Below are positions 15,555 through 59,542 of a stretch of DNA of 59,542 nucleotides, piece by piece. The translations under genes were made by a program, and so were the position numbers. The stretch comes from a bacterium (GTDB taxonomy: Bacteria; UBA9089; JASEIO01). The stretch lies in NCBI GenBank assembly GCA_030017475.1, contig JASEIO010000003.1:1-59542 (forward strand), in the 5' to 3' direction. The notes below the pieces were generated by a model. That model ran no database searches and was not told the origin of the DNA. It saw only the letters and a list, made by a program, of their open reading frames with translations. Position 1 is the stretch's first letter. Each line of letters begins with the position of its first letter.

Positions 15555-16597
15555 TTAGAAGAAAGACAAAGGAGATCAAGGTTCGAGATGTAGTAATTGG
15601 TGGAAGTGCACCTATATCTGTTCAATCAATGACAAAGACTGATACGAGAGACATAGATGCTACTATTTCGCAAATTAGGAGACTTGAGGATGTAGGTTGT
15701 GAGATTGTTAGGGTTTCAGTGAAAGATTCTGAAGCAGCCAATGCACTTCCAGAGATCAAGAGAAGGATAGGTATTCCATTGGTGGCTGATGTCCATTTTG
15801 ATTATAGATTGGCAATCGCCTCAATTGAAAAAGGGGTTGATAAGATCCGGATAAATCCAGGAAATATTAGGGATGAAGCTAAGATTAGAGAGATAGTTTT
15901 AAAGGCAAAAGAAAGGGGTATACCAATTAGGATTGGTGTAAATAGTGGATCAATAAACGAGAAAGCCACCCCTTCAGAAATGGTCAATCTTGCGCTAAAG
16001 TACGTAGGTATATTAGAGAAATTGCGCTTTTATGACATTATCATTTCTCTTAAGGCATCAGATGTCCCTACTACATTAGCCTCATATCAATTGATGGCAG
16101 GGCATGTTGATTATCCATTTCATATTGGTATCACTGAATCAGGTTTGCCTTTGAAAGGAGGTATTAAATCGGCTGTTGGGATAGGGATTTTGCTATTCCA
16201 AGGGATTGGGGATACGATACGTGTATCCTTAACTGGAGATCCTGTAGAAGAGGTTAAAGCAGGCTATGAAATTTTAAAGGCATTAAGCTTACGGACATAT
16301 GGCTATGAGATCATCTCCTGTCCAACCTGTGGTAGATGTGAGATAGATTTAGTAAGGATTACTGAGGAGGTGGAAGATAGATTGTCCAACTTCCAACTTC
16401 CAACTTCCCACTTCCCACTTAAGATAGCTATTATGGGGTGTGTGGTGAATGGTCCAGGAGAGGCACGCCATGCAGATATAGGTATTGCAGGAGGTAAAGG
16501 GGTAGGGATATTGTTTAAAAGAGGAAAGGTGGTAAAAAGGATTAAGGAAAAGGATTTGGTCGAGACTTTACTATATGAGGTAAGAAATTGGAGATAG
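15551..16597 (+). CDS. ispG: HMBPP synthase
   Basis: SVQSMT, RINPGN, RIGVNSGS, CPTCGR, MGCVVNGPGE. Confidence 0.97.
   Translation: MIRRKTKEIKVRDVVIGGSAPISVQSMTKTDTRDIDATISQIRRLEDVGCEIVRVSVKDSEAANALPEIKRRIGIPLVADVHFDYRLAIASIEKGVDKIRINPGNIRDEAKIREIVLKAKERGIPIRIGVNSGSINEKATPSEMVNLALKYVGILEKLRFYDIIISLKASDVPTTLASYQLMAGHVDYPFHIGITESGLPLKGGIKSAVGIGILLFQGIGDTIRVSLTGDPVEEVKAGYEILKALSLRTYGYEIISCPTCGRCEIDLVRITEEVEDRLSNFQLPTSHFPLKIAIMGCVVNGPGEARHADIGIAGGKGVGILFKRGKVVKRIKEKDLVETLLYEVRNWR
16385..16419 (+). repeat. Heptamer tandem repeat in ispG
   Basis: TCCAACT x3 + TCCCACT x2, encoding SNFQLPTSHFP. Confidence 0.9.
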
Positions 16598-17403
16598 ATA
16601 AAGCTATAGGGATATTTGATTCAGGTGTTGGTGGATTAACAGTAATGAAGGAGGTAATCAAAGAACTTCCCTTTGAAGATATTATCTATTTTGGAGACAT
16701 AGCCAGAACGCCTTATGGGTCAAAAAGTAAGGAGACTGTAACTAAATATGCAAGGGAAATTGTCCATTTTCTATCTTCCCAAGGGGTAAAGATAATAGTT
16801 GTTGCTTGTAATACAGTCACTTCTTTCGCCTTAGAGACCTTAAGGCAGGAGTTTAGGTTACCAATTATAGGTGTTATTAAACCAGGGGTAAAGAAGGCAG
16901 TAGAGATTGCAGGAAATAAAAGGGTTGGAGTTATTGGTACCGAAGGAACAATATTGAGTGGAGCTTACCAAAGAGAGATTAAATCAATACAACCTTCGGT
17001 AGAGATTATAAGTATTTCATGTCCATTATTTGTCCCCATAGTTGAAGAAGGATGGATAGATACAGAGGTTTCCAACTTAGTTGCTTCGGAATATTTAGCC
17101 CCTTTAAAGACTAAGAAGATAGATACATTGATCTTAGGTTGCACCCATTATCCTATGCTAAAAAAGGTAATTCAAAAGGTTATAGGAGATGGAGTGAAAT
17201 TGGTTGATTCTGCTACGCAAGTTGCCATAGAAACCAAAGATGTTCTATCAAAAAACGGACTGATTCGTGAATCTAATAGAAAAGCGACTCATAAGTTCTA
17301 CGTTTCAGATCTTCCTCCAAAATTTAAAGAGCTTGCAAAGAGATTTTTAGGGGAGGAGATTAGGGAAGTGATTAAGATAGATATGAGTGAATTTGTTAAA
17401 TAA
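16588..17403 (+). CDS. murI: Glutamate racemase
   Basis: FDSGVGGLTV, ACNT, LGCTHYP. Confidence 0.96.
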   Translation: MEIDKAIGIFDSGVGGLTVMKEVIKELPFEDIIYFGDIARTPYGSKSKETVTKYAREIVHFLSSQGVKIIVVACNTVTSFALETLRQEFRLPIIGVIKPGVKKAVEIAGNKRVGVIGTEGTILSGAYQREIKSIQPSVEIISISCPLFVPIVEEGWIDTEVSNLVASEYLAPLKTKKIDTLILGCTHYPMLKKVIQKVIGDGVKLVDSATQVAIETKDVLSKNGLIRESNRKATHKFYVSDLPPKFKELAKRFLGEEIREVIKIDMSEFVK

Positions 17404-17416
17404 TAAGGAGGAAGAC

Positions 17417-24826: not shown

Positions 24827-24899
<73 letters not shown>

Positions 24900-24910
24900 C
24901 CTGGAAATAT

Positions 24911-24985
24911 GGTGGGCGTAGCTCAATTGGTTAGAGCGAAGGACTGTGGATCCTTAGGTTGGGGGTTCAAATCCCCTCGCTCACC
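24911..24985 (+). tRNA. tRNA-His(GUG)
   Basis: G-1 with C73; anticodon arm AAGGA-CTGTGGA-TCCTT. Confidence 0.95.
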
Positions 24986-24993
24986 CTAAGTGT

Positions 24994-25070
24994 GCGCCTG
25001 TAGCTCAGTTGGATAGAGCGGTGGACTTCGAATCCAAAGGTCAGAGGTTCGAATCCTCTCAGGCGTGCCA
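24994..25070 (+). tRNA. tRNA-Arg(UCG)
   Basis: Anticodon loop CTTCGAA; CCA encoded. Confidence 0.93.
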
Positions 25071-25071
25071 C

Positions 25072-25149
25072 GCGCCTATAGCTCAACTTGGATAGAGCGG
25101 CGGACTCCGGATCCGAAGATTGGGGGTTCAAATCCCCCTTGGCGCACCA
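25072..25149 (+). tRNA. tRNA-Arg(CCG)
   Basis: Anticodon loop CTCCGGA; CCA encoded; one T-T mismatch in acceptor stem. Confidence 0.92.
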
Positions 25150-27662: not shown

Positions 27663-29078
27663 GTGTTAGATGATGTAATAACTACTATAACTCAATATAA
27701 TATGTTAGAATTAGAGGACAAGGTAATAGTGGCTGTTTCAGGTGGACCTGATTCAGTGAGTTTATTGCATATCTTATGGTGTTTGAAAGATAAATGGAGG
27801 TTGAATCTACATATAGCACATCTAAATCACTCACTTCGTGGAGAAGAGGCAGAGAAGGACGCATGTTTTGTAAAAGGGTTAGCTAAAAGGTATGGATTTC
27901 CAATTACCTTGCGTGAAGTTGATGTCTTAAAATGGAGTCAAGAAAAGAAAGTTTCCCTTGAGGTTGGAGCAAGAAGGTTAAGATACGAATTCCTCGTTGG
28001 GGTGGCTGAAAGTGTAAATGCGAGGAAGATTGCTTTAGGACATAATGCAAATGATAATATAGAAACCATTTTAATGAGGTTAATTCGAGGGACAGGTATT
28101 TGTGGTTTAAAAGGGATACCTCCTGACCGTTCGCTTAATGATAATTTAAAGATTATTCGTCCTTTGATTAATATTACCTCTCTTCAGATCAAAGATTACA
28201 TTGCGCAGAATAATCTAGAATATCGAATTGATTCATCTAACCTTAAACCCATTTATTTACGAAATAAGATAAGATTAGAACTCTTGCCACTTATGTTAGA
28301 ATATAATCGCAAGTTTAAAGAGGCATTGTTAAAGACAGCCTCACTTTGGGAGAAGGATGATGAATACCTTAACGAAATTGCAAGAATTGAATTCTCCAAG
28401 GCTTTGTTAAAAAGTAACAAAAGGATAATCCTTGATTTAGGTAAAATTACATATCTTCCCCAGGCTATTTTATCGAGGATCTTAAGAGAAGGGATTAGAT
28501 TAGCTAAAGGCAATTTAGAAAGGGTTACCTATCGCCATATAGCCCAGATTATAAGATTAATAGATAGAGGTCCTTCTCAGGGAGAGGTATATTTACCTGA
28601 CAGAATTAAGATCCAAAGAGAGTACGAGCATATTATAATCTATAGAGAAGAGGAAAAAAGGGATAGGGACAAAAAGATAGGTTTTGAATACCCAATAAAT
28701 GTACCTGGTGAAACAAGGATAATTTTCTTAAATACGGAACTTCAGACTGAAATTTTAGAAAGAGATTCTTCATTCTTCATCCCTCATCCCTCTCTAAATA
28801 TAGCCCATTTTGATTATGACAAGGTTAAATTACCCTTAATTCTACGGAGTCGCGCACCAGGAGATAGATTCACCCCTTTAGGAATGAAGGGTAGGAAGAA
28901 AGTAAAGGACTTCTTTATTGATTTGAAAATAGGAAAGTTAGATCGAGAGAAAATCCCTTTATTATTGGATAAAGAAGGGATAATTTGGGTAGTTGGATAT
29001 AGGATTGATGATAGGGTAAGAATCTCAAGAGATACCAAAAGGATACTTAAGGTCTCCTATCATGTATCTTGCGAGTAA
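27663..29078 (+). CDS. tilS: tRNA(Ile)-lysidine synthetase
   Basis: AVSGGPDS, HLNHSLRG, ARRLRY, GHNAND, RNKIRL, C-terminal KKVKDFFID. Confidence 0.96.
   Translation: MLDDVITTITQYNMLELEDKVIVAVSGGPDSVSLLHILWCLKDKWRLNLHIAHLNHSLRGEEAEKDACFVKGLAKRYGFPITLREVDVLKWSQEKKVSLEVGARRLRYEFLVGVAESVNARKIALGHNANDNIETILMRLIRGTGICGLKGIPPDRSLNDNLKIIRPLINITSLQIKDYIAQNNLEYRIDSSNLKPIYLRNKIRLELLPLMLEYNRKFKEALLKTASLWEKDDEYLNEIARIEFSKALLKSNKRIILDLGKITYLPQAILSRILREGIRLAKGNLERVTYRHIAQIIRLIDRGPSQGEVYLPDRIKIQREYEHIIIYREEEKRDRDKKIGFEYPINVPGETRIIFLNTELQTEILERDSSFFIPHPSLNIAHFDYDKVKLPLILRSRAPGDRFTPLGMKGRKKVKDFFIDLKIGKLDREKIPLLLDKEGIIWVVGYRIDDRVRISRDTKRILKVSYHVSCE
28765..28792 (+). repeat. Heptamer tandem repeat in tilS
   Basis: ATTCTTC x2 + ATCCCTC x2, encoding DSSFFIPHPS. 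Confidence 0.75.
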
Positions 29079-46061: not shown

Positions 46062-47150
46062 ATGTTTAAGCAAAAAGCAATTAAAGGGTTAATTTGCCTT
46101 GTGGCAATAGGAGTGTTTGCAAGCACAGGTTGGGCTATGGGCAAGAAGCCTGCTGAGAGTGAGCAGTTGTTAGTGAGCAGTGAGCAGAAGGAGATTGAGT
46201 CAACAGGGGTTCAGCCAGAGGGTGAGAGTAAACCAGCTAAGGTTGAGGTGGCAGAGCAGAAAGGGACTCAAACCTCAGAGGCTCAAGCCATAGAGCCAAA
46301 GCCAGTTATGGAGTATAAGCTTCCTGAAGGTGAGGAGATTGTGGATGTTATCTTTGGTGAGGCAGAGATGACTGTAGAAGAAGCAATGGCTTTAGGGATA
46401 AAAGGCTTAGAGCAGAAGAAGGCAACCGAAACCGTGAAGGTGCAGTATCCAAAGGTAATAACGATCAAAGACATGAATATTAAAGGTGATGTATCTATAA
46501 AATCGATTAGATTCTTGAATGAAAAAGGAGAGATGAAGAGCGAATATCAAGTTAAAGGACAAAGAGAATGGACGGGTGTTATGGTTTCCAAGAATAAGAA
46601 GTACCTTAATGTCCATTCTATTATCAATTATGAAAAAGAAGAAGCAGAATCTATAATGTTGAATGACGAGGGAAAAGTGTTATGGAGTGTTAAGCATAAT
46701 CTCTTTGAAGTCTATCCATCACCAAATGGCAAGTATTTGGTTGGACTTCCTACTATTGAGTGGAGTGATGCCCCAATATATGTTTATAATGAAAAAGGAT
46801 TGGTTAGGGAAATAAAGAAGGATGATCTATCTTGTAGGTTAAGCTTTTCTAAAGATGGAAGTTATTTTGCTGTAACTTTAACTACAAGAATTGAAGGTGA
46901 AGATAGAGCAGATTTAATAGTATTTGATGGAGAAGGAAATGAACTTTGGAGAAAGAATGGTATAACAAGAGGAATTGCCGCAGATTATTGCCCAATAAAT
47001 ATTACAGATGATGACATAATCACGGTAATGACAGGTGGAGATGAATATAAGATATATCATTTTGATAAGAAAGGCAATTTGGTTAAAGAAGAACAAGGTA
47101 ATTTAGAATTACTTAGGCAATTCAACCCAGATTATTCAAGAGCAAGGTAA
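46062..47150 (+). CDS. Secreted protein A2: paralogous N-terminus + different beta-propeller-like region
   Basis: N-terminus nearly identical to A1; SPNGKY, FSKDGSY, DGEGNELW; ATG 46062 after GAGGTG. Confidence 0.8.
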   Translation: MFKQKAIKGLICLVAIGVFASTGWAMGKKPAESEQLLVSSEQKEIESTGVQPEGESKPAKVEVAEQKGTQTSEAQAIEPKPVMEYKLPEGEEIVDVIFGEAEMTVEEAMALGIKGLEQKKATETVKVQYPKVITIKDMNIKGDVSIKSIRFLNEKGEMKSEYQVKGQREWTGVMVSKNKKYLNVHSIINYEKEEAESIMLNDEGKVLWSVKHNLFEVYPSPNGKYLVGLPTIEWSDAPIYVYNEKGLVREIKKDDLSCRLSFSKDGSYFAVTLTTRIEGEDRADLIVFDGEGNELWRKNGITRGIAADYCPINITDDDIITVMTGGDEYKIYHFDKKGNLVKEEQGNLELLRQFNPDYSRAR

Positions 47151-47196: not shown

Positions 47197-50100
47197 ATGC
47201 TAAGAAAGACCTTTAATCTCTTCATTTTAAGTTCGTTGTTTATTCTATCTCCAATTATAGCATCAGGTTATCAATGGCCTGTTGATTCTTTCGATAAACA
47301 ACATCCAATCAATGCTACATTAGGAGAGTACAGATCTAAGTTTCATAACGGTGTAGATATAGGTAGGTTTCATAGAGGTGTAGATATAGGAGAACCTGAA
47401 AAAACCAATGTATATCCTGTTGTTAGTGGGACAGTAGCTAAGATAGTATATAGAGGAAAGAACTCTTATGTCACAGTTGAAGATGGAAATAGAAAGATTG
47501 ATTATGTCCATATAAATCCAAATCCATCAATACGAGTAAATCAGTCTGTAACAGCGGGTGAGACTGTTCTTGGTACAATAAATGATCTAAACCACCTCCA
47601 CTTTCAAGAAGATGAGGGGGCAGTAAACCCTCTTCGCCCTGGAGGACTTACTCCATTCACTGATAAGGGTGAACCAAAAGTTAAGAAAGTGGAAGTAGTG
47701 AAGGATAGTACTCCTGATGCTCCTGATGCTGGGAAACCATTTCCAACAGATAGTAATGGTATTCCTATTGTATCTGGTAATGTTGATATTAAAGTATGGG
47801 CCTATGATCCAAGGGTTAATGCAGATGGGACTCCTGGTGAAAGGGGTGGTATGGGGATATATAGAATTGGATATGAGGTCAGAAAAGAATCTGATGGTAC
47901 TCTTGTTGAAGGACCAACATATAGGATTCAATTCGATACCATCTCCTCTGATTATAAGGTGAAGTATGTTTATGATCCAAAATCAAGTTATATACCTGTT
48001 AATTTTATCTACTTGGCAACAAATTACCCTAATTCTAATGGCTACTGGAATACAGAAAGACTTGAAGACGGAAGGTATAAGGTTAAGAGTTTAGTGGAAG
48101 ATATTAAAGGCAGGAGTGCTGAGAAAGGGATCACAGTGATCATCGACCTCACCCCACCCAAGGTAAAGGAGAGCACCACTGGAAATAATGCTCAGGATGT
48201 TCCTTTAGATAGTACCATTGAGATTACCTTAGAAGACCCAAAGAAGAACGACTATTCCTCAGGGATTGATCCTAAGTCCCTAAAGCCAGAGGAATGTAAG
48301 ATTGATCCCAAAATCGATGGTACCTGGAAGATCAAGGGAGAAGGATTTATCTTTATTCCTAATGAACGCCTAAAAGAAGAGACCACCTACAAAGTCACCA
48401 TCCCCAAGGAGGCAGCTAAGGATAAGGCTGGTAATGAATTAGAGAGCCACATTTTCACATTCAAGAGTGGCTGGTTTGGGGCAAAGGCGTTAACGACATC
48501 TTATCAGAAAGTGTATCCTAGAGAAACTGTAACTCATGTTATTGCTATCAGCAACCATTTAGGAAAGAATGAGGATTTTGAGCTTGTTGTAAAAAATCCA
48601 TCAGGCATGGGGTGGTCCTGGGGCTTTGGTAGTCCTGGTGGAGGAGAACGGATAGAGGTTAATGCCCCATATGATCCATCGAATGATAAGTACAAAGATG
48701 ATGATGCTACAGTATGTTTTATGGCCAAGGCCCCTCGTGTACCATGTACGAGTGTCTTCACGGCTCAGATCTTTATTCAGATAAAGGATAAACCAGAGAC
48801 AGAAAGAGAAGTAGTATACCTTGGAGACATAACCCAGGGTGAACGCATTAATGACCATCCGGATGACAACTACGAGATCTCTGATCCACAGTATCCAACC
48901 AATATGTACATCTCCAGTAAGGCCGATGTTGCTATGTTGTTAAGGGGATACTCAGATGGCATGGGCCATCTACTCGGAAGATGGAAGATACCAGTTTCTC
49001 TCATCTTAGATGATCTTACCCCTATCTTTAGAGAGAAAAGAACCCTTTCAGATTACCCCGTACTGATCATACCTACCCTGGGCCTATCAGGCATCTCAAA
49101 CTCACCTACCACCAAGGCAAAACTTGAAGAATACGTCAAGAATGGAGGAACGATAATCTGTTTCACCCAGCAGCATGGGTATGACTTCGAGGCCCTGCCC
49201 AGGGGAGATGAACTCAAAGGGTATGGCTGGAGTGAAGATCAGTCATGCTGGCGTGGTTCGGTATCCATCTCTACCCCTCATCCAGTCTTTGCTGGTCAGG
49301 ATACCCAAATCCTTGACATAGTCACTGATGGCTACTTTGACAGATGGCCAGATGATTCGACTATTCTCTTGAGACGAACAAAGAATGATATGCCGGCTAT
49401 GCTGATGTATCCTTATGGAAAGGGAATAGTTATAGTTTCTGGCTTCTATGAGGACTGGGCCTATGGAAATTCCCAATCAACCAAGGATGGAAGAAATCTG
49501 GTAAGAGATCTTGTTACCTTTGCCAAAGATCCAGATAAGCATATCCCAGAGTATAGGGGTGAAGAAAAGATCAATGAGCAATTAACAATTAGAAATGATC
49601 AATTGACAATTGCAGAAAGAATAAAGGTTAGGGTGTATGATCCGGACAAAAACGAGCTTGTATCTTACAACCAAGAACTTACAACCCCATTAGAGGCCGG
49701 AGAGTCAATCACCATTCCATTTGACTATACTGCCCCTCAAAGCCTTGGTATCTATGAGGTAACCTATATCCTTCTTGATAGAGACGATGAGGAGATTCAG
49801 GAGGAAGAGGTAGGACTGAGGTTTGGGGTAAGTCTTGGCCTTGTGGGAGTGGCCAAGAAGGACCTTTCAATTAACATTACTTCAGATGGAGATGAAGTCA
49901 GAGTCAAAGGGACACCAGCCACCTTTACTATCACTGTGAGGAATAATAGTGATGAAATAAGGAAGGTTACCCTCAACTGGCATAGTCATGCAGGAGGGGG
50001 TTCGATTGGAACATATACTGTTTTACCTAAATCGAGCATCTCTATTCCTTACACCACGGACCGTATCTACTTTTACTGGCAGGGTCCAAGGTGGGAGTTC

Positions 50101-53100
50101 TACATATATTGTCCTGAGGCCGGCACTAGGTGGATTGGTTTAGCGGGAATATGTGTAGAACCTTTGGTTTATGTCTCTCTTTTAACTGATAAATATGAGT
50201 ATCAAAGGGGAGAGGATTTGGAATTGGATGTTTTGGTTAAAAATCTAATGTCAAATCCACAAAACGTCAATCTGAAGATCAATATAGTTGATCTGAATTG
50301 GGAAGATTGGAAGGAGGAGAGAACCCTTGAAGTGGATCTTGGCTCAGAAGAATCTGTAAGAGAGAAGCTTATATTCCAGGTTCCAGAATACCTCTATGGG
50401 GGGATATATAAGGTTAAGGCAGAGGCCTATGTAGATCAAGTACTTCTATATGAGGCTATGACCACCTTCAAGGTTACACCCTTATTGCTAAGCCTTGAGT
50501 CGAAAATCAAAGAAGCTTATGCTTGGGGTAATGATGCAAACCTCGATTTTATTATTAAGAATGATGGAGATATAGACAGGGAGGTTACCCTGAGTGGTTT
50601 CTTCTCTTGTTATTATCAACCATTTGAGAAAACTCTATTTATCCCGGCCGGTGGCGAGGTATCTTACACCCATATTATAGAAACAGTTTGGTGTGGATCA
50701 ACACTCACTGCCTCTCTTTATACTGAGAAGGGAGTAAAGATTGAACAAATAGATAAGTGGTTTGATGTTTATAAAGTGGTTCCAAGGAGTACTCTCTCCA
50801 CAAACAAAAAGAGGTATCTTCGTGGAGAGGAGGTAAAGATTACCTTGGACATTCAAGATAGTCATAAGATTGACTATCCGGCCCGGGTGAAGGTTGTTAT
50901 GGGTAATGGGTTATGGGTTATAGGTGATGAGGAAGTAGAGATCATCGATGGGAAGGCAACCAAGGAATTTACATACATCATTCCAAAGGATGCTGAGAGG
51001 GGATACTATAATATAAAGGCTTATGTCTACTATCAGGAGGAAATGATAGGTTATGGTACTACTTCCTTTTATGTTCTAAAGCCTAAACTTGCGGTTAAGC
51101 CGAGTCTACCAGATGTCTTCACAGTTAAGGGTTCACAGTTGACGGTTGCCAGTGGAGAAAGGGTAAATCCTGTGGATTTTGAAATAGAGAATGTAGGTCC
51201 TATTGATGTGATAGATGGGAAATTAGAAGTAAGTTTAGAGTGTAGAGTTGAGAGTTTAGAGGAAGGAGAAGATGGGGCAGGGAGCAGGGGGCAGGAGGAA
51301 GAGGGAGAAGAGGTGTGGAGGGATGAGAGGGAGTTTGGGAAACTGAAGGCAGGATATGGAGAGGAGCAAGGAGAGAAGACTACCCTTGAGTTTGATATTC
51401 CTATTGAAGAGGTCAGGTTTGGGACTTATGTGCTTAAATATGTCTTGAAATATGAGACTGAAGAGATAAAGGGGGAAGAAGAGATAGTTTCAAAGGTTAC
51501 CATCAAGGAGTTTAAGCTTGACAAAACCTCATACAAGGTTAGAGATGAAATGAAAATAGAGCTTGAGGTGATTAACGCCGGAGGATTCGAAGAGAGATTT
51601 AAGGTAGGGCTAACATCCGCAAGTCTTAAGCCAATAGCCCTTGAGGACCAGGAACTTATCTTACTGCCAGGTGAGAGCAAGATACTGAATTATGCGACCA
51701 CCATAATAGAGGATATAGAACCTGGGGTGCATGAAGTAGAAGTAGTTATAAGTCATCAGGGGAGTGGAAGTCTTGGAGATGGCTCATCCAATCAAGGGAG
51801 TGGAAGTTTGGGAGAAGATGAGATAATAAAGAAGTTTAGTTTTGTGGTATCGGCTTCACGATTAGAGGCCTATCTGGATAAGAAGTATTACTCTTGTGGA
51901 AAGGGTGGGAGTATTAAGATTACCAACGCAGGTGGGGTGGATACGAACTACTCCTACAATCTCAGGTTGGTAGATTGGAATGGACTTGTTTTCTTTGAGG
52001 AAGCTGGAAGTGGTAGCATAAAAGCAGGTGATGGGTTATTGGTGATGGATGGTGGGAAAATAGGGTTTATGATACCGGAGCAGTTGGTGAGTGGTGGGTA
52101 CAATCTTATGTTGGAGCTTAAGGATGAAAAGAAGAATGAAGGGATAAAGAGATTGTTTTACATCAATGTAAATGGTTTACAGGCCAGGGTTACTCCAAAG
52201 ACAGAGGAGAAGATCTACTTCTATGGGGACCAGGTCAATGCCTCTACGCTGATTGAGAAATTGGGCCTTCCCATAAATGGGGCAAGCCTCAAGATAAGGG
52301 CCTATGCCTCTGGGGGTGAGTGGACCCACTATCCAGACATCAGGGATGTCAATGCCATTGTGGCAGATGGGGACTATGTCTTGTTTGGAACAGCTGGTTA
52401 TGGGGTAAGAAGATATAACAAGAAGAATGATACATGGGATCTCTTTGATACTTCAAACTCAGGGCTCTTGGATGATAATGTTCTCTTAATTGGGGTCGAT
52501 ACCCACTATCTCTGGTTTGTCACATCAAGAGGGGTCTCAAGGTGTGATAAGACTATGAATAATTGGGAGAACTTCACCAAGGAAGAGATAGGACTAAGCT
52601 TCTTCGACTCTATCCAAAGCATAGCCATAGATAATGACTACGTATGGTTTGGTGGTGACTATCCTGGACTGATCAGATATAGTAAGGGTAATGGAGAATG
52701 GATGCACTGGAGCCTGGATGAGATTGGAGATAAGATAGGGATAGAGGGCCTGATTATAAATAGCATGGTCGTTGATGATGGAATCCTCTATATGGGTACT
52801 AGTGAATGGTGTGGCTCTCAGGACTATCTTATCAAGTTAGAGACAGAAACCGAGACCTTGAGTGTTATAAAAGAGATGAGTGTCCTTGCCCTCTCTCAGG
52901 ACTCTGACTGCCTCTGGATTGGATGGAATAATATCTTAACCGGATACAATAAGCAGACCGGTGAATTCAAGGACTATGAGATCCCCTATTCCCCAGAATA
53001 TTATTGGGATGGAGTAAGTGATGGGACAATCTCTGTAGCCTCTCTTTGTGTGGATGAATATAAGGTCTACTTAGGCTCAGATAAGGGAGGGGTCTATATC

Positions 53101-56100
53101 TTTGATAAAGAGAGAAAAACCTGGGAGGAGCTTGTCTCTGAGATTGGTAGTCCACAAAGTGTCTTGGCCATAGCAGCAGATGAAGACTATGTCTGGTTTG
53201 CCGGAAGAGATACGTTGACACGCTTTGATCGGGGTTATCGCTTCCAGGGGGAAAAGGTCAGCTATGGTGAGTGCATATCTATGATCGATGCCGGAGACCG
53301 GCTCATAATCCTTCCCTATGATACTTCAAGACTCATCTTCTATGACAAGGCTACCGGTTATACAGAAGAGATTAACATCCCATTAGGCACTCATTCCTCT
53401 GAGTCATCGATGGCCCTTGATGGGGACTGCGTCTGGATAGTCGGGAAGCATAACGATGTTATCTTACGGTATGATATGACAAATGATCACTTTGATGAGT
53501 GGATGCTCAATTGGTTGGTTGATGATGTCTTTGCCCTGGATGGTGACTATGTCTGGTTCAGACTTGAAGGAGGTAAAGGCATCCAGGCCATAAGGTATGA
53601 CAAGATAAATGATGACCTAAGGCTCTACAAGGACGTTCCTGACTACTTAGACTTCAAAAAGAGATACTACTATGATAAGGAGCTTGGAGATTGGGTAGAC
53701 TCGCACCTTGAGATAAACAAGGTCTATCCCGAGCTAAGTGATCTATACAAGTATATAGAAAAGTTTATAGATGAATTCGAGTATCTTAAGAACGTGGCCG
53801 TTTGTGGGGATTATGTCTGGTTTAGTGGAGGTAGTGGTCTAATCAGATATGATAAGGCCGCTGATTCATGGAGATACTTTGATCTTGACATTGAGACTGG
53901 CAAGATATGGGCAAATGATGGAGTCATCTATATCGATTGTAATGGCCTCTACAGGTATGATCCAACAACTACAGAACTCTCTAAACTCTTAAATCTAAGT
54001 AGTGAAGTAACCTTCCTCCTCTTTGATGATAAAGACCTCTGGCTTGGAACGAATGGAGAGGGATTGTGGCACTATGAAGGCGGTTCATGGACTCAGTTTA
54101 CCGAGGAGAATACTGATGGTGGACTGTTGAGCAATCGTCTTTTTGCCGGCTGCCTCGATGGAAGCTACATCTGGTTGGACTGTGGTACCATAACACGATA
54201 CGATAAGGCCGCTGGTGAGTGGAAGAGTTATAGGGAAGACTGGTTTGATAGTATCACTTCCATCTTAGCCGATCAAGTATTCCTATGGATTGGTGGAAGA
54301 GGAGGATTATTCAAGATGAAGAAGGTAGGAGAGATACTCTTTGATGAGACTATCCAGGTTAATGTGGGGAGTGATGTTACCACAAACCATCTTTTAGGGA
54401 TCTTAGATACTTTAGGTAAGGTCTACATAGATGCGGTGCTTACATCATCCAAGGGTCAATTAATTGACCATGGTCAGAATACATTCTACATCATCAATAC
54501 CTCAACCTCTCTTTCATTTGAGACAGATAAGCCCATCTATAAACCGTACGAGACAGTCACCATAACAGGTAAGATCCATAATGCCGCCCAGATACCCACC
54601 AATCCCTTGAAACTCAAGTTGAGAAAGAAGGATAAAGAGGTCATCTATCAGGAGGAGAATATCGTTCTCCAGCCATATGAAACAAGGCAGTTTACCACCA
54701 CAACCACGGCAGATAAGTCATTTGTCTTAGAGGGATCGATCGGTGATCTTAAGCTAACCGACTTTGTGGAGGTAGCAAAACCAGAGCTTGAAGTGACGAT
54801 AGATGCACAAGAGGTGGTTTCAAGAGATGAGTTTACTCCCTTGATCATTCTTAAGAATACGGGGAAGGTGGAATTGCAAATTGAAAATTGCATATTGAAG
54901 ATTGCAAAGGCTGAGGATGGAGAAGAATTAACTGTCTACTGTCTATTGTCTACTGTATACTGCCTAAGGCCTGGTGAAACAAAGATATTTGAGCAACCAC
55001 TTCAAATCCATGAGGATGTTATCCTGAGTGTAGAGGTGAGTGGGGATGTAAGAAAGACCGTAGCCAAACAGATAGGGTTTGGGGAGAAGGTAACCATTGG
55101 GGTTACACCCGAGGAGATCTATCCTATCGGGATTATAGAGGTGCCATTTGTCATCACTAACGGTGGGAGCCTGGATTCAAAGCTTGAGGTTGTCTTTGTT
55201 CTGGAGAAGACTGAAAAGGAAAATGGAGCAGGGAGCAGGGAACAGGAGGCAGATGGCAGAGGAGAGAGTGTATCGGGCAGGAGTCAGAAGGTAGAAAGGG
55301 TGATTGGTGGGAAGATGGTTTATGGTCCATGGTTGATAGTCCATGGCCAGAAGGAAGGATATAACAGAGAAAGGAGAATGATCAGGGAGCAGTTGCAAGG
55401 ATTGTGTTGGATAATACCACAGATAAGGATCAGTAAGCAGCAGGAAGAGGGAAGCAGGCAGAGGGAAAAGGAGAAGGAAGCGCAGAGTGTTACTACCAAC
55501 CAGTTAACATCTACCAGTTACCAGTTAAGCAGTTACAAAGACAGCGTGGAGTTGGTAAAGACCTTCTATATACCGGCTGGTGAGAAGATAGCGGGGGATC
55601 TTGTCTTTAATCTGAATGAGGGAGACTATAAGCTCTTGTTTACCTCAGAACTTTCCTCTGGCGCAACATACTTCAAGGTTGCAAAAGACGGTATAGTAGA
55701 AATAAATAAGTTAGAAGTGGGAAGTGGGAAGTTAGAGGCTAATAAACTGCCTACAGATGTTATGGTTAAGAATCTTGGAGGAAATAACTTTGTTGGGGTC
55801 CTGAGGCTTGATGCGGGATTTTATGAAGAAGAAAGCCAGATAGAATTAGAGAGTGCCCAGGAAGAGACTTACAGATTCGGAATTCCCCTTGAGGCAAGTT
55901 CCGGGGAGTACACAGCCAGGGCAGAGGTTCTACATGACGGCTGGGTGATAGCCGAGAAGGAACAGAGGTTTAAACTGGAGCCTTGGTTTGAAATAACCGG
56001 AATCTGGGGGAAGTCTGGTGAGGCAGGTGGTAGTGGGATTAGTTTTGATGTAGGAGAGGAAGGGAGATTTAAATTTGCTGTAAAGAATACGGGAACGGCA

Positions 56101-58281
56101 GAGGGGAAGGTCATTCTCCACCTGAAGTTCCTTGACCTTGTGGATGAAGAGAAGGAGGTCTGGCTTGGAGTGGGCCAGACAGAAGAGGTGGAGTTCTCTT
56201 TTGAGGTGCCGGATGATTTGGAGGATAAGGACCACATAGCAGTACTCAGTAGTCAGTGGTCAGTAGTCAGTGGGATAAAAGAGATAGAAGAAGAGATACA
56301 GGTGCATATAAATGGAATAAAGATTGGGGTGGAGGCAGAGCTGGATAAGCCATTCTATCAAGAGGGGGATACGGCCGTCCTGACCCTCAAGGTCACAAAT
56401 CTCACCTCCTTATCCCTGGCGATGTACACCAAGATCAATTTCAATGATTATCAGGAGCGTCAGGACTTTGAGCTTGGACCCATGGATGGTTCACAATCCA
56501 CAGTAGAGCTACAATTCAACATCCCGATCCAGTTCACAGGCCAGAAGATCGGGTATGGGGTCTACATGTCCTCTGGAAGGAGTATCTATCTTAACTCGAT
56601 GTATGTCAGAAAGAAAGGGGAGATAATAACACTCTGGACAGATAAGGAAGTCTATGGGGCCGGGGAAGAGGTAATCATCAATTATCAATTATCAATGAGC
56701 AATGAAGAATTGGCCACTGGCAATTATCAATTGTCAATCGATGGAGAGGAAGTAGTTGAGCCGTTTACCATACCTTTAACCGAGAATGAGGGGACAACCA
56801 GTTTCATCTTGCCTAAGGAGCTAAACAGCGGAACCTATATCATAAACTATGAGCTAACAGAAGGTTCTCAACAGCTTGAAAAGGGAGAGTACCGATTTGA
56901 TGTTATTGGTTATGAGGTGATAATCATAAAGGCGACTCTGGATAAACAGGTCTACAACTCTGGGGATGAACTGAATCTTGATCTTACCATCAAATCGAAT
57001 AGTGACCTGGATATCCTGGTCAGGGCCTGGATCTACAACCCGGAGGGTGGGTATGAGGACTTCTTCAACAAGGGAGCTATTCTTTCCTGTGGCAGGACAA
57101 GACACAGAATCAACGGCGAGATTACCGATACCATGCCAGGTGTTCATTTGCTGGTCTATGCGATCTATTCAGGTAATAATGAATGGTTGCTCCTTGCCGC
57201 AGGGAGCGAGAGCTTTGATCTGAACACCCCGGATACTATCAACACCGATTTTTCTGCCACCCCAGACTCGGGCGAGGTGGATGATAAATTCCCAAGGGCG
57301 ACCATCGTCCGACCCAATCCAGGAGATAGAGTTTCAGGAGATGCAGTCCTTATAAAAGTGGTAAGTGAAGATAAAGATATTGTGAACATAAACTTTCAGT
57401 ATAGATTGAGTAATCAAGGTGCATGGACAGATATTGTTAGCAGCATAGATACAGGATCGATATACTCTGTAACCTGGGATACTACTTGGCTGACAGAAGG
57501 TAGCTATGATTTAAGGGCAGTCGCAGAAGATGCTATGGGCAATGTGGATACAGATCCTCCATATATTACTGTTATTGTCGATCATCCAAATGCTGATTAT
57601 TCTGAATATGGAGTGAAAATGGCCAAAGATAATGTAATTGAAAATGGTGATGGGATCAGGGTCAAGATACCGGCTGGGGTTCTAACCAAAGATACTATCA
57701 TAAAAATCTCAAAACCAGATCCGGCTGATATTCCACCAAACAAGGATAAACCCACCGGGTTGTTTCTTGAGATTACCCTTGAGAGTGGCCAGGAACACCT
57801 AAATGGGTACATCTTCATTTCAATGCCATATCTGGACAACGATAATAATGGCCTGGTCGATGGCACAGACATCTTAGAGGAGAATCTAAAGGTTAATATC
57901 TACAGAGACACAGGCTGGAAAAGGCTGCCAACAACTATAGATGCTATAGATAATATCGCTACCGGCAAAACAGACCACCTCGGTAGCTTCGGATTATTTG
58001 GATCTCTCACCTCTGATCTTGATAATGTGCTGGTCTTTCCCAATCCATTCAGGCCTGGAAAGGGTGAAACCATCAGGTTCTTGAATCTGACCGAGAATGT
58101 GATCATAAGAATCTATAATGTGGCTGGCGAACTCATCAGGTACAAAGAGGATATAACAGACCATTGGAAATGGGATGGAAGAAACGACCATGGCCAACCA
58201 GTGGCAACCGGCGGCTATATCTATATCATCACCGATGATAATGGAAGAAAGAAGATAGGAAAGATTGCGGTTGTTTGGTAA
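47197..58281 (+). CDS. Giant secreted protein (3694 aa): M23 peptidase, Ig-like domains, GATase-like domain, beta-propellers, FlgD/T9SS-type C-terminal domain
   Basis: Signal peptide; HxxxD (twice), YVH and HLH; D..PP.V...KDKAGN Ig; YVWF/DxLW blades; VFPNPF...IYNVAGELI...WDGRN...G.Y.Y CTD. Confidence 0.85.
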   Translation: MLRKTFNLFILSSLFILSPIIASGYQWPVDSFDKQHPINATLGEYRSKFHNGVDIGRFHRGVDIGEPEKTNVYPVVSGTVAKIVYRGKNSYVTVEDGNRKIDYVHINPNPSIRVNQSVTAGETVLGTINDLNHLHFQEDEGAVNPLRPGGLTPFTDKGEPKVKKVEVVKDSTPDAPDAGKPFPTDSNGIPIVSGNVDIKVWAYDPRVNADGTPGERGGMGIYRIGYEVRKESDGTLVEGPTYRIQFDTISSDYKVKYVYDPKSSYIPVNFIYLATNYPNSNGYWNTERLEDGRYKVKSLVEDIKGRSAEKGITVIIDLTPPKVKESTTGNNAQDVPLDSTIEITLEDPKKNDYSSGIDPKSLKPEECKIDPKIDGTWKIKGEGFIFIPNERLKEETTYKVTIPKEAAKDKAGNELESHIFTFKSGWFGAKALTTSYQKVYPRETVTHVIAISNHLGKNEDFELVVKNPSGMGWSWGFGSPGGGERIEVNAPYDPSNDKYKDDDATVCFMAKAPRVPCTSVFTAQIFIQIKDKPETEREVVYLGDITQGERINDHPDDNYEISDPQYPTNMYISSKADVAMLLRGYSDGMGHLLGRWKIPVSLILDDLTPIFREKRTLSDYPVLIIPTLGLSGISNSPTTKAKLEEYVKNGGTIICFTQQHGYDFEALPRGDELKGYGWSEDQSCWRGSVSISTPHPVFAGQDTQILDIVTDGYFDRWPDDSTILLRRTKNDMPAMLMYPYGKGIVIVSGFYEDWAYGNSQSTKDGRNLVRDLVTFAKDPDKHIPEYRGEEKINEQLTIRNDQLTIAERIKVRVYDPDKNELVSYNQELTTPLEAGESITIPFDYTAPQSLGIYEVTYILLDRDDEEIQEEEVGLRFGVSLGLVGVAKKDLSINITSDGDEVRVKGTPATFTITVRNNSDEIRKVTLNWHSHAGGGSIGTYTVLPKSSISIPYTTDRIYFYWQGPRWEFYIYCPEAGTRWIGLAGICVEPLVYVSLLTDKYEYQRGEDLELDVLVKNLMSNPQNVNLKINIVDLNWEDWKEERTLEVDLGSEESVREKLIFQVPEYLYGGIYKVKAEAYVDQVLLYEAMTTFKVTPLLLSLESKIKEAYAWGNDANLDFIIKNDGDIDREVTLSGFFSCYYQPFEKTLFIPAGGEVSYTHIIETVWCGSTLTASLYTEKGVKIEQIDKWFDVYKVVPRSTLSTNKKRYLRGEEVKITLDIQDSHKIDYPARVKVVMGNGLWVIGDEEVEIIDGKATKEFTYIIPKDAERGYYNIKAYVYYQEEMIGYGTTSFYVLKPKLAVKPSLPDVFTVKGSQLTVASGERVNPVDFEIENVGPIDVIDGKLEVSLECRVESLEEGEDGAGSRGQEEEGEEVWRDEREFGKLKAGYGEEQGEKTTLEFDIPIEEVRFGTYVLKYVLKYETEEIKGEEEIVSKVTIKEFKLDKTSYKVRDEMKIELEVINAGGFEERFKVGLTSASLKPIALEDQELILLPGESKILNYATTIIEDIEPGVHEVEVVISHQGSGSLGDGSSNQGSGSLGEDEIIKKFSFVVSASRLEAYLDKKYYSCGKGGSIKITNAGGVDTNYSYNLRLVDWNGLVFFEEAGSGSIKAGDGLLVMDGGKIGFMIPEQLVSGGYNLMLELKDEKKNEGIKRLFYINVNGLQARVTPKTEEKIYFYGDQVNASTLIEKLGLPINGASLKIRAYASGGEWTHYPDIRDVNAIVADGDYVLFGTAGYGVRRYNKKNDTWDLFDTSNSGLLDDNVLLIGVDTHYLWFVTSRGVSRCDKTMNNWENFTKEEIGLSFFDSIQSIAIDNDYVWFGGDYPGLIRYSKGNGEWMHWSLDEIGDKIGIEGLIINSMVVDDGILYMGTSEWCGSQDYLIKLETETETLSVIKEMSVLALSQDSDCLWIGWNNILTGYNKQTGEFKDYEIPYSPEYYWDGVSDGTISVASLCVDEYKVYLGSDKGGVYIFDKERKTWEELVSEIGSPQSVLAIAADEDYVWFAGRDTLTRFDRGYRFQGEKVSYGECISMIDAGDRLIILPYDTSRLIFYDKATGYTEEINIPLGTHSSESSMALDGDCVWIVGKHNDVILRYDMTNDHFDEWMLNWLVDDVFALDGDYVWFRLEGGKGIQAIRYDKINDDLRLYKDVPDYLDFKKRYYYDKELGDWVDSHLEINKVYPELSDLYKYIEKFIDEFEYLKNVAVCGDYVWFSGGSGLIRYDKAADSWRYFDLDIETGKIWANDGVIYIDCNGLYRYDPTTTELSKLLNLSSEVTFLLFDDKDLWLGTNGEGLWHYEGGSWTQFTEENTDGGLLSNRLFAGCLDGSYIWLDCGTITRYDKAAGEWKSYREDWFDSITSILADQVFLWIGGRGGLFKMKKVGEILFDETIQVNVGSDVTTNHLLGILDTLGKVYIDAVLTSSKGQLIDHGQNTFYIINTSTSLSFETDKPIYKPYETVTITGKIHNAAQIPTNPLKLKLRKKDKEVIYQEENIVLQPYETRQFTTTTTADKSFVLEGSIGDLKLTDFVEVAKPELEVTIDAQEVVSRDEFTPLIILKNTGKVELQIENCILKIAKAEDGEELTVYCLLSTVYCLRPGETKIFEQPLQIHEDVILSVEVSGDVRKTVAKQIGFGEKVTIGVTPEEIYPIGIIEVPFVITNGGSLDSKLEVVFVLEKTEKENGAGSREQEADGRGESVSGRSQKVERVIGGKMVYGPWLIVHGQKEGYNRERRMIREQLQGLCWIIPQIRISKQQEEGSRQREKEKEAQSVTTNQLTSTSYQLSSYKDSVELVKTFYIPAGEKIAGDLVFNLNEGDYKLLFTSELSSGATYFKVAKDGIVEINKLEVGSGKLEANKLPTDVMVKNLGGNNFVGVLRLDAGFYEEESQIELESAQEETYRFGIPLEASSGEYTARAEVLHDGWVIAEKEQRFKLEPWFEITGIWGKSGEAGGSGISFDVGEEGRFKFAVKNTGTAEGKVILHLKFLDLVDEEKEVWLGVGQTEEVEFSFEVPDDLEDKDHIAVLSSQWSVVSGIKEIEEEIQVHINGIKIGVEAELDKPFYQEGDTAVLTLKVTNLTSLSLAMYTKINFNDYQERQDFELGPMDGSQSTVELQFNIPIQFTGQKIGYGVYMSSGRSIYLNSMYVRKKGEIITLWTDKEVYGAGEEVIINYQLSMSNEELATGNYQLSIDGEEVVEPFTIPLTENEGTTSFILPKELNSGTYIINYELTEGSQQLEKGEYRFDVIGYEVIIIKATLDKQVYNSGDELNLDLTIKSNSDLDILVRAWIYNPEGGYEDFFNKGAILSCGRTRHRINGEITDTMPGVHLLVYAIYSGNNEWLLLAAGSESFDLNTPDTINTDFSATPDSGEVDDKFPRATIVRPNPGDRVSGDAVLIKVVSEDKDIVNINFQYRLSNQGAWTDIVSSIDTGSIYSVTWDTTWLTEGSYDLRAVAEDAMGNVDTDPPYITVIVDHPNADYSEYGVKMAKDNVIENGDGIRVKIPAGVLTKDTIIKISKPDPADIPPNKDKPTGLFLEITLESGQEHLNGYIFISMPYLDNDNNGLVDGTDILEENLKVNIYRDTGWKRLPTTIDAIDNIATGKTDHLGSFGLFGSLTSDLDNVLVFPNPFRPGKGETIRFLNLTENVIIRIYNVAGELIRYKEDITDHWKWDGRNDHGQPVATGGYIYIITDDNGRKKIGKIAVVW
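49571..56740 (+). repeat. At least 14 separate in-frame degenerate heptamer tracts within the giant gene
   Basis: Tracts start at 49571, 50896, 51119, 51232, 51274, 52028, 54872, 54931, 55225, 55315, 55499, 55708, 56240, 56678. Confidence 0.85.
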
Positions 58282-59228
58282 TGAATAAGTTAAAATATAT
58301 TAATCTGATAATCTTGTTTCTTTTAGTGTTTTCCTCGTCTTCTCAAGCAGGAGAAGAGCATGGGGGTACGTCCGCTGCCTCCTTTCTTAAGATTGGGATA
58401 GGGGCAAAGGCGACTGGTATGGGGCAGACTCATTGTGCAGTGGCAGACGATTCTACGGCCCTCTACTGGAACCCGGCTGGTCTTGTCTTGCTCAAGAGAA
58501 ATGAAATGAGCTACATGCACAATCTATGGTTTGGTGAGATAACACATGGATTCCTCGGTTATGCCCATCCCTTAAAGAACCTCAGTCTGGGTGTTGGCAT
58601 AGACTATCTGACCATAGGTGAGATAGAGGAGACGACCGAACTCGAACCAAGGGGAACAGGGAAAAAGTTCAGATTAGAGGAAGATGTAGCCTTCTTTGTC
58701 TCGGCCTCAAAAAGGATAAGAGAGAACCTGTCCCTGGGCATGAACCTAAAATACATCCTGCAAGAGGTTGCGGGTGAGAGGGCCATGGGTTGTGGGACCG
58801 ATCTGGGTCTATTCTACAAACTCCACCTCCTAAACCTTGGCCTTGTCATCCAGAATCTTGGCCCGGGCATGAGATTTACAGAGAAGGAGTTTGCCTTGCC
58901 CTTTAATATAAAGACGGGCCTTGCCTATAAAGGAATCAAAAATACCATCCTTGCCCTCGATGTAAATCTTCCACGAGACAACAGGGCAAGCTATCATCTT
59001 GGCGTGGAGTACCGGATTGGTGATCTTTTGGCCATGAGGGCAGGTTATAATTCCCGCATCACAGAGAATAAACTGGGCAGGTTCAATCTTGGAGAGGGCT
59101 TGAGTACGGGCTTTGGTATCAACTTTAAAGCGACCCAACTCGATGTGGCCTATATCCACTATGGAGATCTTGGCGATACCTACCAGGTATCCCTTCTGAC
59201 TAGGTTTGGAAAGGCAGAAGGCAGATGA
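58275..59228 (+). CDS. PorV/PorQ (UPF0164)-family outer-membrane beta-barrel
   Basis: FLKIGIGAKATGMG, ALYWNPAGL, amphipathic strands, LRAG-like MRAGY, LDVAY..YGDLG. Confidence 0.85.
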   Translation: MVMNKLKYINLIILFLLVFSSSSQAGEEHGGTSAASFLKIGIGAKATGMGQTHCAVADDSTALYWNPAGLVLLKRNEMSYMHNLWFGEITHGFLGYAHPLKNLSLGVGIDYLTIGEIEETTELEPRGTGKKFRLEEDVAFFVSASKRIRENLSLGMNLKYILQEVAGERAMGCGTDLGLFYKLHLLNLGLVIQNLGPGMRFTEKEFALPFNIKTGLAYKGIKNTILALDVNLPRDNRASYHLGVEYRIGDLLAMRAGYNSRITENKLGRFNLGEGLSTGFGINFKATQLDVAYIHYGDLGDTYQVSLLTRFGKAEGR

Positions 59229-59542
59229 CAAGGCACTGAGCATGAAGTGCGGAGCAGGTATCGCTTCCAGGCAAAGCTCCCAACCACCCATCACCCAAAA
59301 TCCTCACCTAACGCCTCTTTCTCTTCTTAATCACCATCTCTGCATTTGGTTATGCCAATTTTTCATTTCAGCCTGAGGTTTAAACCCAGCTTGCCCTTCA
59401 AAGATTCTCTACTGTCTGATCTCATCAATGCTTGATTTTTTTGAGAAGCACATCTGCTGCTTGTTCGCGGCAAAAAATGCAGGTTTTTAAAAAAATTTAA
59501 AAAATCATCTGGAGAGATTAAGACTACTGTATAGGAGAGATA

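Follow-up and report, generated by a model that had tools for sequence, protein, structure and literature searches.

The window analysed here, which is the whole of contig C45 (59,542 nt) of genome G000, carries in its genes an excess of tandem repeats with a unit of seven nucleotides, and this excess is real and specific to period 7. The tracts belong to the known class of heptanucleotide simple-sequence repeats (SSRs), in a coding-sequence variety that has been undescribed, and they were probably made in place by slippage with a 7-nt register and then filtered by the reading frame. Essential genes, among them IspG, CarA and Tgt, carry in-frame tracts in their linkers, loops and signal peptides, and alignments of orthologous sites indicate that the tracts persist across families while their units turn over.

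Genome G000 (1.64 Mb, 111 contigs, 37.7% G+C, 98.5% completeness) is the sole member of its own genus and family (family f1), and its nearest relatives share only the phylum with it. Tandem repeats were identified with Tandem Repeats Finder (TRF), using a score of at least 30 for rows in the window and scores of at least 36 and at least 40 as stricter sets, and the chance level was set by three order-3 Markov simulations of the G000 genome. The window yielded 54 rows, 17 of which have period 7, against approximately 2.1 expected from the simulations (Poisson P ~1e-10). At the same score the complete genome contains 167 rows of period 7, 66 of period 6 and 74 of period 8, with 59, 59 and 53 period-7 rows in the three simulated genomes. 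At a score of at least 40 the simulations gave no period-7 rows at all (0, 0, 0), and G000 has 43, compared to 2 of period 6, 1 of period 8, 11 of period 9 and 4 of period 10. An earlier, sequence-only reading of this DNA had considered that period 7 might not be enriched over other periods; the enrichment over periods 6 and 8 removes that objection. Perfect runs of at least three copies number eight at period 7, and 4, 2 and 0 at periods 5, 6 and 8. The same preference was found in 16 relatives, from each of which 19–100 kb was sampled (approximately 830 kb pooled): 130 tracts of period 7, 44 of period 8, 2 of period 6 and none of period 5.

The sequence-only reading described about 20 tracts between positions 16385 and 59300, and 16 of the 17 period-7 rows indeed fall there, although four of these (at 28765, 28777, 46154 and 59211) are weak, with scores of 30–33. 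Its term "window-wide" is an overstatement, as 11 of the 16 tracts are located in a single gene (47197–58281), with the others in other genes. Tracts are present in housekeeping genes (IspG/GcpE, TilS) as well as in accessory genes, as it had proposed, and the many different units that it noted are confirmed at the genome level, where 60 tracts with a score of at least 36 fall into 48 classes when rotation and strand are taken into account. Three parts of the description did not hold. All 17 period-7 rows lie inside open reading frames (ORFs) and none in a spacer, all host ORFs are on the + strand rather than on both, and no inverted pairs with arms of at least 16 nt within 80 nt were found in the window. 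A scan for reverse-complement units at distances up to 250 nt gave one weak partner for one of the 26 period-7 and period-14 rows of the window; elsewhere in G000 an inverted pair is present on C67 (26898/26940). The features of the window and the repeat-bearing elements of relatives are listed in Table 1.

Table 1. Heptamer tracts and related repeats in the window, and dispersed elements with heptamer arrays in relatives.
Feature	Position	Strand	Context and evidence
ACTAATA x3.1	9046..9068	+	In ORF 8710-9504, outside the span described by the sequence-only reading; TRF 30, chance level
TCCAACT/TCCCACT x5.1, 36 nt	16385..16420	+	In frame in IspG/GcpE (15551-16597), aa 279-290; TRF 58; Pfam GcpE
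14-mer x2.1	26985-27013		Between tRNA genes; the sole spacer repeat of the window
ATTCTTC x2.3 and TCATCCC x2.3, abutting, weak	28765..28792	+	TilS (27663-29078), aa 368-377; TRF 32 each, near chance level; Pfam PP-loop/TilS
TGAGCAG x5, degenerate (67% matches)	46154..46187	+	Putative lipoprotein gene, start probably 46062; TRF 33
Giant ORF, 3,694 aa	47197..58281	+	Surface protein with C-terminal sorting domain; 11 period-7 tracts, hot spot
CAATTGA x4.9 / 14-mer x3	49563..49612	+	Giant ORF aa 789-806; TRF 31 and 49
GTTATGG x4.9	50896..50929	+	Giant ORF aa 1234-1245; TRF 47
Compound block: 14-mer x2.1, AGTTTAG x4.3, GCAGGGA x2.7, 9-mer x3.8	51118..51332	+	Giant ORF; TRF and sequence reading
AATTGCA x5.3 (76% matches)	54872..54908	+	Giant ORF aa 2559-2571; TRF 46
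ACTGTCT x5.1 (TVYCLLSTVYCL)	54931..54966	+	Giant ORF aa 2579-2590; TRF 51
Compound block of ~310 nt: GGAGCAG x3.1, 14-mer x2.3, 14-mer x2.1, ACCAGTT x5.3	55225..55536	+	Giant ORF, low-complexity peptide aa 2677-2780; TRF
GAAGTGG x2.7, perfect	55714..55732	+	Giant ORF aa 2840-2846; TRF 38
CAGTAGT x4.6	56240..56273	+	Giant ORF aa 3015-3026; TRF 50
AATTATC x3.4	56673..56703	+	Giant ORF aa 3159-3169; TRF 41
AAGGCAG x2.1	59211..59225	+	3' end of PorV-like ORF 58275-59228 (Pfam); TRF 30, chance level
MITE-like element, ~275 bp	L101:1924-2204, L102:14439-14719, L103:1-280 (G021)		Terminal inverted repeats, internal inverted heptamer arrays
MITE-like element, 140-180 bp	L097, L098, L100 (G023)		Terminal inverted repeats, internal inverted heptamer arrays

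The placement of the tracts relative to genes was determined for the complete genome with a crude ORF call (1,419 ORFs covering 90% of the genome). By this call, of the 60 tracts with a score of at least 36, 45 are within ORFs, 7 run across the end of one and 8 lie in intergenic sequence; per base the spacers are approximately threefold denser in tracts than the ORFs. Among 44 coding tracts, only 4 are built on a consensus unit that would introduce a stop codon in frame, compared to 31% of random 7-mers (P = 5e-4), and in those four the unit variants keep the frame open. Pfam domains place tracts in IspG, TilS, a PyrC-like amidohydrolase, CarA, GlyS, a phosphoglycerate-mutase-like enzyme, PheT, a MiaB-like enzyme, PrmC, Tgt, a DegT aminotransferase, Mfd, a GltD-like protein and others; most of the tracts placed in this way are found between domains, for example in CarA, the MiaB-like enzyme, Mfd, the GltD-like protein and a radical-SAM protein. 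The peptides encoded are largely of two types. T-rich units (of the TACTGTC, TGTTTAC and TTACTAC kind) encode hydrophobic runs, including at least nine N-terminal segments that resemble signal peptides, and units of the ATCACCC type, the complement of GGGTGAT, encode linkers rich in Thr, His, Pro and Ser.

The giant surface-protein gene is a hot spot, with 11 rows at a score of at least 30 where the rate in the rest of the coding sequence predicts 0.77 (P ~7e-10), and 9 at a score of at least 36 where 0.27 are expected; the other 11 largest ORFs have 0–2 period-7 rows each. Its frame is kept open in the same manner as seen genome-wide. A perfect AGTTTAG array in the block at 51118 would give an in-frame stop that the unit variants present avoid, and a perfect CAGTAGT array at 56240 would give an in-frame TAG, at the positions of which TAC and TGG variants are found. 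Homologues of the protein are encoded in 18 of 30 relatives. A protein search for a strain-level homologue among proteins of near length returned the query alone; shorter fragments were not searched. At the ACTGTCT tract (54931) the homologues of G020, G022 and G024 are shorter by exactly 7 aa (21 nt), and G004 carries at this place a four-copy AGTTACC/AATTACC array that matches the native ATTACC of the empty sites in G020 and G024. The AATTGCA tract at 54872 has the same length as the homologues at the site, and is therefore either an overwrite or a chance resemblance. In the compound block at 55225, most homologues align up to query residue ~275 and again from ~332–380, skipping the block, and in each aligned homologue a short conserved motif is surrounded by filler derived from that homologue's own repeats, so that the block reads as hypervariable filler.

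The weak tract at 46154 is part of a pair of tandem paralogous genes for putative lipoproteins (44277–44675 and 46062–46460), which are 82% identical over approximately 400 nt. A block of approximately 95 nt following the signal peptide, which includes the tract, is wholly different from the corresponding block of the 44277 paralogue, although of equal length and with flanks that are ~90% identical. This block swap may represent an overwrite or patchy gene conversion.

Comparison of orthologous sites shows how the tracts behave over time. At the tract site of IspG, heptamer tracts of related but different units are also found in G023, G021, G020, G019 and G004, and the tract of one relative is a perfect TCCAATT x5. 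The stretch from SCPTC to GEA measures 150 nt in five genomes (G000 and four tract-bearing relatives) and 159 nt in G019; in three f6 genomes it measures 135 nt, 15 nt shorter, without a tract. Near residue 140 of IspG, L273 (G001) and L274 (G006) contain in-frame insertions of approximately 120–200 nt made of inverted heptamer arrays, which in G001 also include GC-rich palindromes.

In the linker of CarA (aa 167–178) a visibly 7-periodic tract, as judged by eye, is present in 12 of the 20 relatives with both anchors. Tract lengths are 24, 30, 33 or 36 nt, with the exception of 17 nt in G018, and the units differ even inside one genus. When the 24-nt tracts of G019 and G020 are compared, all seven differing positions fall in two of the seven unit phases (P <= 1e-4), a pattern of concerted change of units. 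The tracts of G015 and G022, of the same genus and with flanks that are 96% identical, are themselves identical. A second site in CarA is empty in G000. Its base state of 30 nt is found in seven genomes, and the filled states of eight genomes exceed it by 9, 21, 27, 42, 45, 50, 63 and 105 nt; the excess is a multiple of 21 nt in four of the eight (21, 42, 63 and 105 nt), and G015 and G022 differ here by exactly 21 nt, or three units. The empty state reads ...TTACC(A/T)AT... and the filled states consist of TACCAAT/TACCGAT arrays, matching the native sequence. In Tgt, the site measures 12 nt in three f8 genomes and 33 nt in two. GGCAGAA is already present in the empty 12-nt site of G019, and G015 and G022 carry an array of the GGCAGAA type; G006 has TGCGGAA x4 at the exact site of the TTCAACG tract of G000. 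The unit is thus derived from native local sequence in all three comparisons of empty and filled sites (CarA site 2, Tgt and the giant ORF). At the three sites compared in same-genus genomes with 96–100% identical flanks, the tracts match completely or to 97%, which speaks against hypervariability.

Density was expressed as period-7 tracts with a score of at least 40 per 100 kb of sampled sequence. It amounts to 20–38 in six f8 genomes, 15 in f2 (G001), 29 and 4 in f3 (G002 and G007), 14 and 26 in two f7 genomes, 0 and 3.6 in two f4 genomes, 0 in the 69 kb of G004 (f5), 0 and 4 in two f6 genomes and 2.6 in G000 itself, a contrast of at least tenfold between families of one phylum. The mean TRF match of 85.6% in G000, against 85.8% in f8, gives no support to the idea that the tracts of G000 are older relics. 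In the relatives most tracts are intergenic, often as inverted pairs that form hairpins with 7-periodic arms. Genus g10 (G015 L117, L119 and L120; G022 L132–L135) contains many 8-nt arrays too, which are largely copies of one dispersed hairpin element with arms AAGGAGAT and ATATCTCC.

Slippage in place with a 7-nt register, our favoured explanation, would proceed as follows. During replication or repair synthesis the nascent strand would re-align with a strong preference for a shift of 7 nt (sometimes 8), and a native 7-mer would thereby be reiterated in head-to-tail copies. Arrays of any copy number could survive in spacers; in genes only net changes divisible by three would, typically of +21 nt (three units, seven residues), and only in places that tolerate any peptide, such as inter-domain linkers, surface loops, the cores of signal peptides and a fast-evolving giant surface protein. 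Units that create stops would be lost or patched. A tract would be long-lived at its site, with its units homogenised by further slippage or conversion, and would sometimes be overwritten by a new unit. The data themselves show the specificity of the period, the local origin of the units, steps of 21 nt in some of the comparisons, the persistence of tracts at orthologous sites and the concerted change of their units; we infer that polymerase or repair slippage is most likely the act that makes the tracts. In L214 (G018) and in L212 (G011, site 2) the position of a heptamer array is exactly where carA falls into two frames, as slips of plus or minus one unit would give; at site 2 a broken frame accompanies the +50 state. 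The split reflects either a real one-unit slip or heterogeneity of the assembly.

Several observations weigh against this explanation. Generic slippage accounts neither for the favoured periods of 7 (and 8) and the absence of 5 and 6, nor for the density contrast of at least tenfold (0 per 69 kb in G004 against 20–38 per 100 kb in f8). The empty sites have no pre-existing two-copy seed, and the first duplication therefore needs more than classical misalignment of repeats. As a +7 step is a frameshift in an essential gene, a gain of +21 would require either a three-unit burst or a short-lived broken allele, neither of which has been directly observed. At CarA site 2, half of the filled states (+9, +27, +45 and +50) are not multiples of 21. 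The CarA genes of G024 and G011 have flanks that are 91–95% identical around unrelated tracts of 48 and 36 nt, suggestive of wholesale replacement, and in G011 the same CGCAATT array with the same 4-nt prefix occurs at two CarA sites approximately 250 nt apart, which has the look of copy and paste. Dispersed elements of 100–280 bp with terminal inverted repeats and internal heptamer arrays are present in G021, G023 and G020, and in family f8 some arrays ride on such miniature inverted-repeat transposable elements (MITEs). Finally, the comparisons are between G000 and its relatives or among the relatives; no sequencing runs in which population indels could be seen were listed.

The strict preference for a period without a preference for sequence, the patchy density among families of one phylum, the empty sites without seeds and the three-unit bursts that essential genes would seem to need are also what would be expected of a trans-acting enzyme or system that is dedicated to the task, specific to the lineage and equipped with its own 7-nt ruler (for example a specialised polymerase, a primase-polymerase or a repair factor), and that was gained and lost between families. 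We consider such a system unlikely. No candidate for it was identified: RVT_1, Y1_Tnp, MutS_I, Exonuc_VII_L and RecJ_OB each fail to track density in the 16 relatives, and the window has no gene of this kind. Heptamer excess is also described in very distant phyla, according to the literature (PMC4679880, PMC4692102), which a property of the core machinery would fit as well as a mobile factor. In a broader form, a heritable determinant, either an accessory factor or a variant of core replication or repair, might set the 7-nt step in f8, f2, f7 and part of f3 and be lost or altered in f4, f5 and f6, reiterating a native 7-mer in multi-unit bursts that give +21 without a broken frame; this, too, we regard as doubtful. 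An undescribed repeat-generating system, as the sequence-only reading proposed, is neither identified nor needed by the evidence. What stands of its genome-wide, trans-acting process is a fixed 7-nt step, regardless of unit, that is genome-wide and common to much of the phylum; the specific mechanisms that it offered found no support, and its statement that the window holds no candidate enzyme is correct, as the window genes encode no such factor.

Among those mechanisms, RT-like or templated synthesis fares poorly. The only RVT_1 match in G000 is a frameshifted remnant of a reverse transcriptase (RT) of the group-II-intron type, spread over several frames at a contig end (C82 ~2734–4127). Across relatives, RVT_1 does not follow density as the sequence-only reading suggested an RT family might: it is absent in tract-rich G001, G002, G014 and G018 (4 of the 10 relatives with at least 13 tracts per 100 kb) and present in tract-poor G005, G007 and G011, and we rejected RT as the general cause. 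For a diversity-generating retroelement or other RT-templated repeats, no intact RT was found in G000; template and variable repeat pairs were not searched for. A fixed template is argued against by the 48 unit classes and by the local origin of the units, and the notion that a few unit families dominate was rejected, since the excess of one-mismatch relatives is only weak (the largest such family across 17 genomes has 34 members, compared to a random mean of 20 and maximum of 29).

Repair functions were considered as well. Loss of mismatch repair was rejected as a cause, as the rich families f8 and f2 have MutS_I (8 of 8 genomes) and the poor families f4 and f5 lack it. MutS_I, MutS_V, the MutL DNA_mis_repair domain and RecJ_OB all lack matches in G000 (at 98.5% completeness), and the families with small genomes (f3, f4, f5, f7) are mostly without MutS_I. 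RecJ_OB is absent in f1, f3 and f7, and the families that have it are both rich (f8, f2) and poor (f4, f5, f6), without correlation; loss of a single-strand exonuclease is discounted by the presence of Exonuc_VII_L in 29 of 31 genomes. The Y1 transposase of the IS200/RAYT type (RAYT, REP-associated tyrosine transposase; REP, repetitive extragenic palindromic) is absent in rich G001, G002 and G014 and present in poor f6 and G003.

It is rather improbable, in our view, that most tracts were inserted ready-made, by small hairpin or MITE-like mobile elements or through ectopic conversion from other arrays. The dispersed elements bounded by terminal inverted repeats, the array that G011 carries in identical form at two CarA sites, the replacement of the tract between the near-identical flanks of G024 and G011, and the presence at CarA site 1 of G018 of a unit typical of CarA site 2 all point in this direction. 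Against it, no second copy of any window tract was found elsewhere in G000; near-identical copies at unrelated loci, which define MITE- or REP-like repeats, are seen for part of the arrays in G021, G023 and G020 and for none of the window tracts, which argues against a mobile element as the general source. In addition, 60 tracts in 48 unit classes, with a one-mismatch family that is only modestly above chance, and units that are native to the site in three of three comparisons are not what insertion predicts. The small mobile gene leaving 7-mer scars that the sequence-only reading envisaged meets the same difficulty, and is further disfavoured by a Y1 transposase that does not track density and by MITE target duplications that look 8 bp long, in three copies of two families, with a fourth copy ambiguous. 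These tentative 8-bp duplications likewise leave 7-base target-site duplications from repeated insertion and excision unsupported. In G023, one MITE family has copies that are a single 7-nt unit apart, at a place without a reading frame.

Selection rather than mutation bias could in principle maintain the tracts for a use, whether as a flexible linker or signal-peptide core in the protein, as a regulatory or G-quadruplex element, or as a switch for phase variation. The same linker sites hold tracts across families, T-rich units supply the hydrophobic N-terminal segments described above, and GGGTGAT-type units could form G-quadruplexes, by analogy with the repeats of Rehm et al. (2015; PMC4692102). 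However, peptide selection would not require a 7-nt period of the DNA, units vary freely at one site, the hosts are essential single-copy genes for which switching off would be lethal, and the tracts appear not to be hypervariable, being identical or nearly so in same-genus genomes, with a 21-nt difference at CarA site 2. Usefulness is a most improbable reason for their abundance. Chance low complexity or an assembly artefact can be dismissed: four window rows score only 30–33, where simulations give 53–59 period-7 rows per genome, but at a score of at least 40 the 43 tracts observed face none in three simulations, long ORFs are kept open, and genomes assembled independently of one another have tracts at the same orthologous sites.

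The tracts can be compared with several known heptamer systems. The short tandemly repeated repetitive (STRR) sequences of cyanobacteria, with which the sequence-only reading compared them, were reportedly described by Mazel and colleagues in 1990 as dispersed tandem heptanucleotides of a few fixed unit families and of unexplained origin. The analogy is fair in that tandem heptanucleotides are dispersed in the genome and lack an explained cause. It differs in that G000 has 48 classes in 60 tracts instead of a few fixed families, a coding location, and a host without photosystem genes: Photo_RC had no matches in G000 (98.5% complete) or in the five relatives tested, and the lineage is non-photosynthetic. 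A coding repeat of 7 nt is known from the poly-psi variable number tandem repeat (VNTR) of NeuO in E. coli K1, which is in frame only at copy numbers that are a multiple of three. The NeuO repeat turns an accessory gene on and off and is hypervariable, whereas tracts of the G000 type are stable between close relatives and reside in essential genes.

The tracts have the properties of long SSRs (LSSRs, units of 5–11 nt), with 7-nt units repeated head to tail beyond chance and period 7 above its neighbours; changes by whole units are seen in relatives, by one unit in MITE copies and by three between G015 and G022. As recounted in PMC4679880 and PMC4692102, Mrazek et al. (2007) found that heptanucleotides outnumber the other long SSRs in most repeat-rich prokaryotes, and proposed polymerase slippage with a 7-nt contact as the cause. 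Shared with G000 are the over-representation of 7-nt units, units that vary by locus and by genome and a scattered phylogeny. According to the same secondary sources coding long SSRs have unit lengths that are a multiple of three; in G000, 45 of 60 period-7 tracts are in crude ORFs, with essential genes among the hosts, 21-nt steps and orthologous persistence.

Repeats built on a single unit family form a further group. In Rehm et al. (2015; PMC4692102), GGGAATC in Xanthomonas and GGGGAYT in Nostoc typically occur in approximately four units, as convergent inverted pairs, and are kept between the same genes in related species with varying length and sequence. These form one G-rich family that is mostly intergenic, in contrast to the dozens of unrelated, mostly genic units of G000 and a window without inverted pairs; GGGTGAT and GGGTAAT units in G000 are the point of likeness. 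The TAACTGA direct repeats of Beggiatoaceae, cyanobacteria and some Bacteroidetes, as described by MacGregor (2015; PMC4679880), occur in sets of 2–6 copies, and their stop-free orientation reads as a 7-residue peptide repeat; unlike the tracts of G000 they have a single unit, lie mostly just upstream of start codons and are proposed to have a regulatory role. Heptanucleotide elements of four and five copies are found within and between genes of Geobacter metallireducens, as given by Aklujkar et al. (2009; PMC2700814), where 49 copies of one consensus are read as regulatory RNA; the units of G000 are site-specific. No description of genome-wide, in-frame heptamer tracts in essential genes was found in the literature searched.

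Other repeats and genes of the window are not related to the heptamers. The first 53–76 nt of the contig (window 1–76) are a dispersed non-heptamer repeat that seems to break the assembly: at least 11 other contigs (C32, C75, C36, C82, C46, C101, C52, C78, C44, C33 and C48) have it at or close to an end, with 87–100% identity. A spacer element of approximately 54 nt at 12269–12330, upstream of ORF 12423–12902 and not built of heptamers, is also present in seven contigs (C78, C41, C57, C65, C43, C42 and C39) with 87–94% identity. Two tRNA clusters are located at 24827–25149 (Arg-His-Arg-Arg) and 26898–27650 (Lys-Leu-Gly-Leu-Met-Met); a TRF row of period 82 at 24918–25137 merely reflects similarity among tRNA genes. 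The stretch 33469–36948 encodes a protein of 1,159 aa that combines a STAND NTPase (nSTAND3) domain with a long TPR array.

An excess of 7-nt repeats has been on record since 1990 (STRR) and 2007 (genome survey), with no mechanism established. What G000 and its relatives add is a non-cyanobacterial, uncultivated phylum with a density contrast of at least tenfold among families, in which the determinant can be sought by comparison; evidence for amplification of the units from sequence native to the site; and orthologous sites with persistent tracts whose units change in concert. Insertions of seven residues, or a multiple thereof, are written into linkers, loops and signal peptides of essential proteins, and would constitute a steady source of variation in protein length and of new hydrophobic or linker segments. 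Since one-unit slips break genes at the tracts, annotators and pipelines for metagenome-assembled genomes may call split genes or pseudogenes, as for CarA in G018 and G011. If a heritable determinant does set the 7-nt step, this phylum would be the place to identify what causes the heptamer repeats of cyanobacteria, Xanthomonas and others, a cause that has long been sought.

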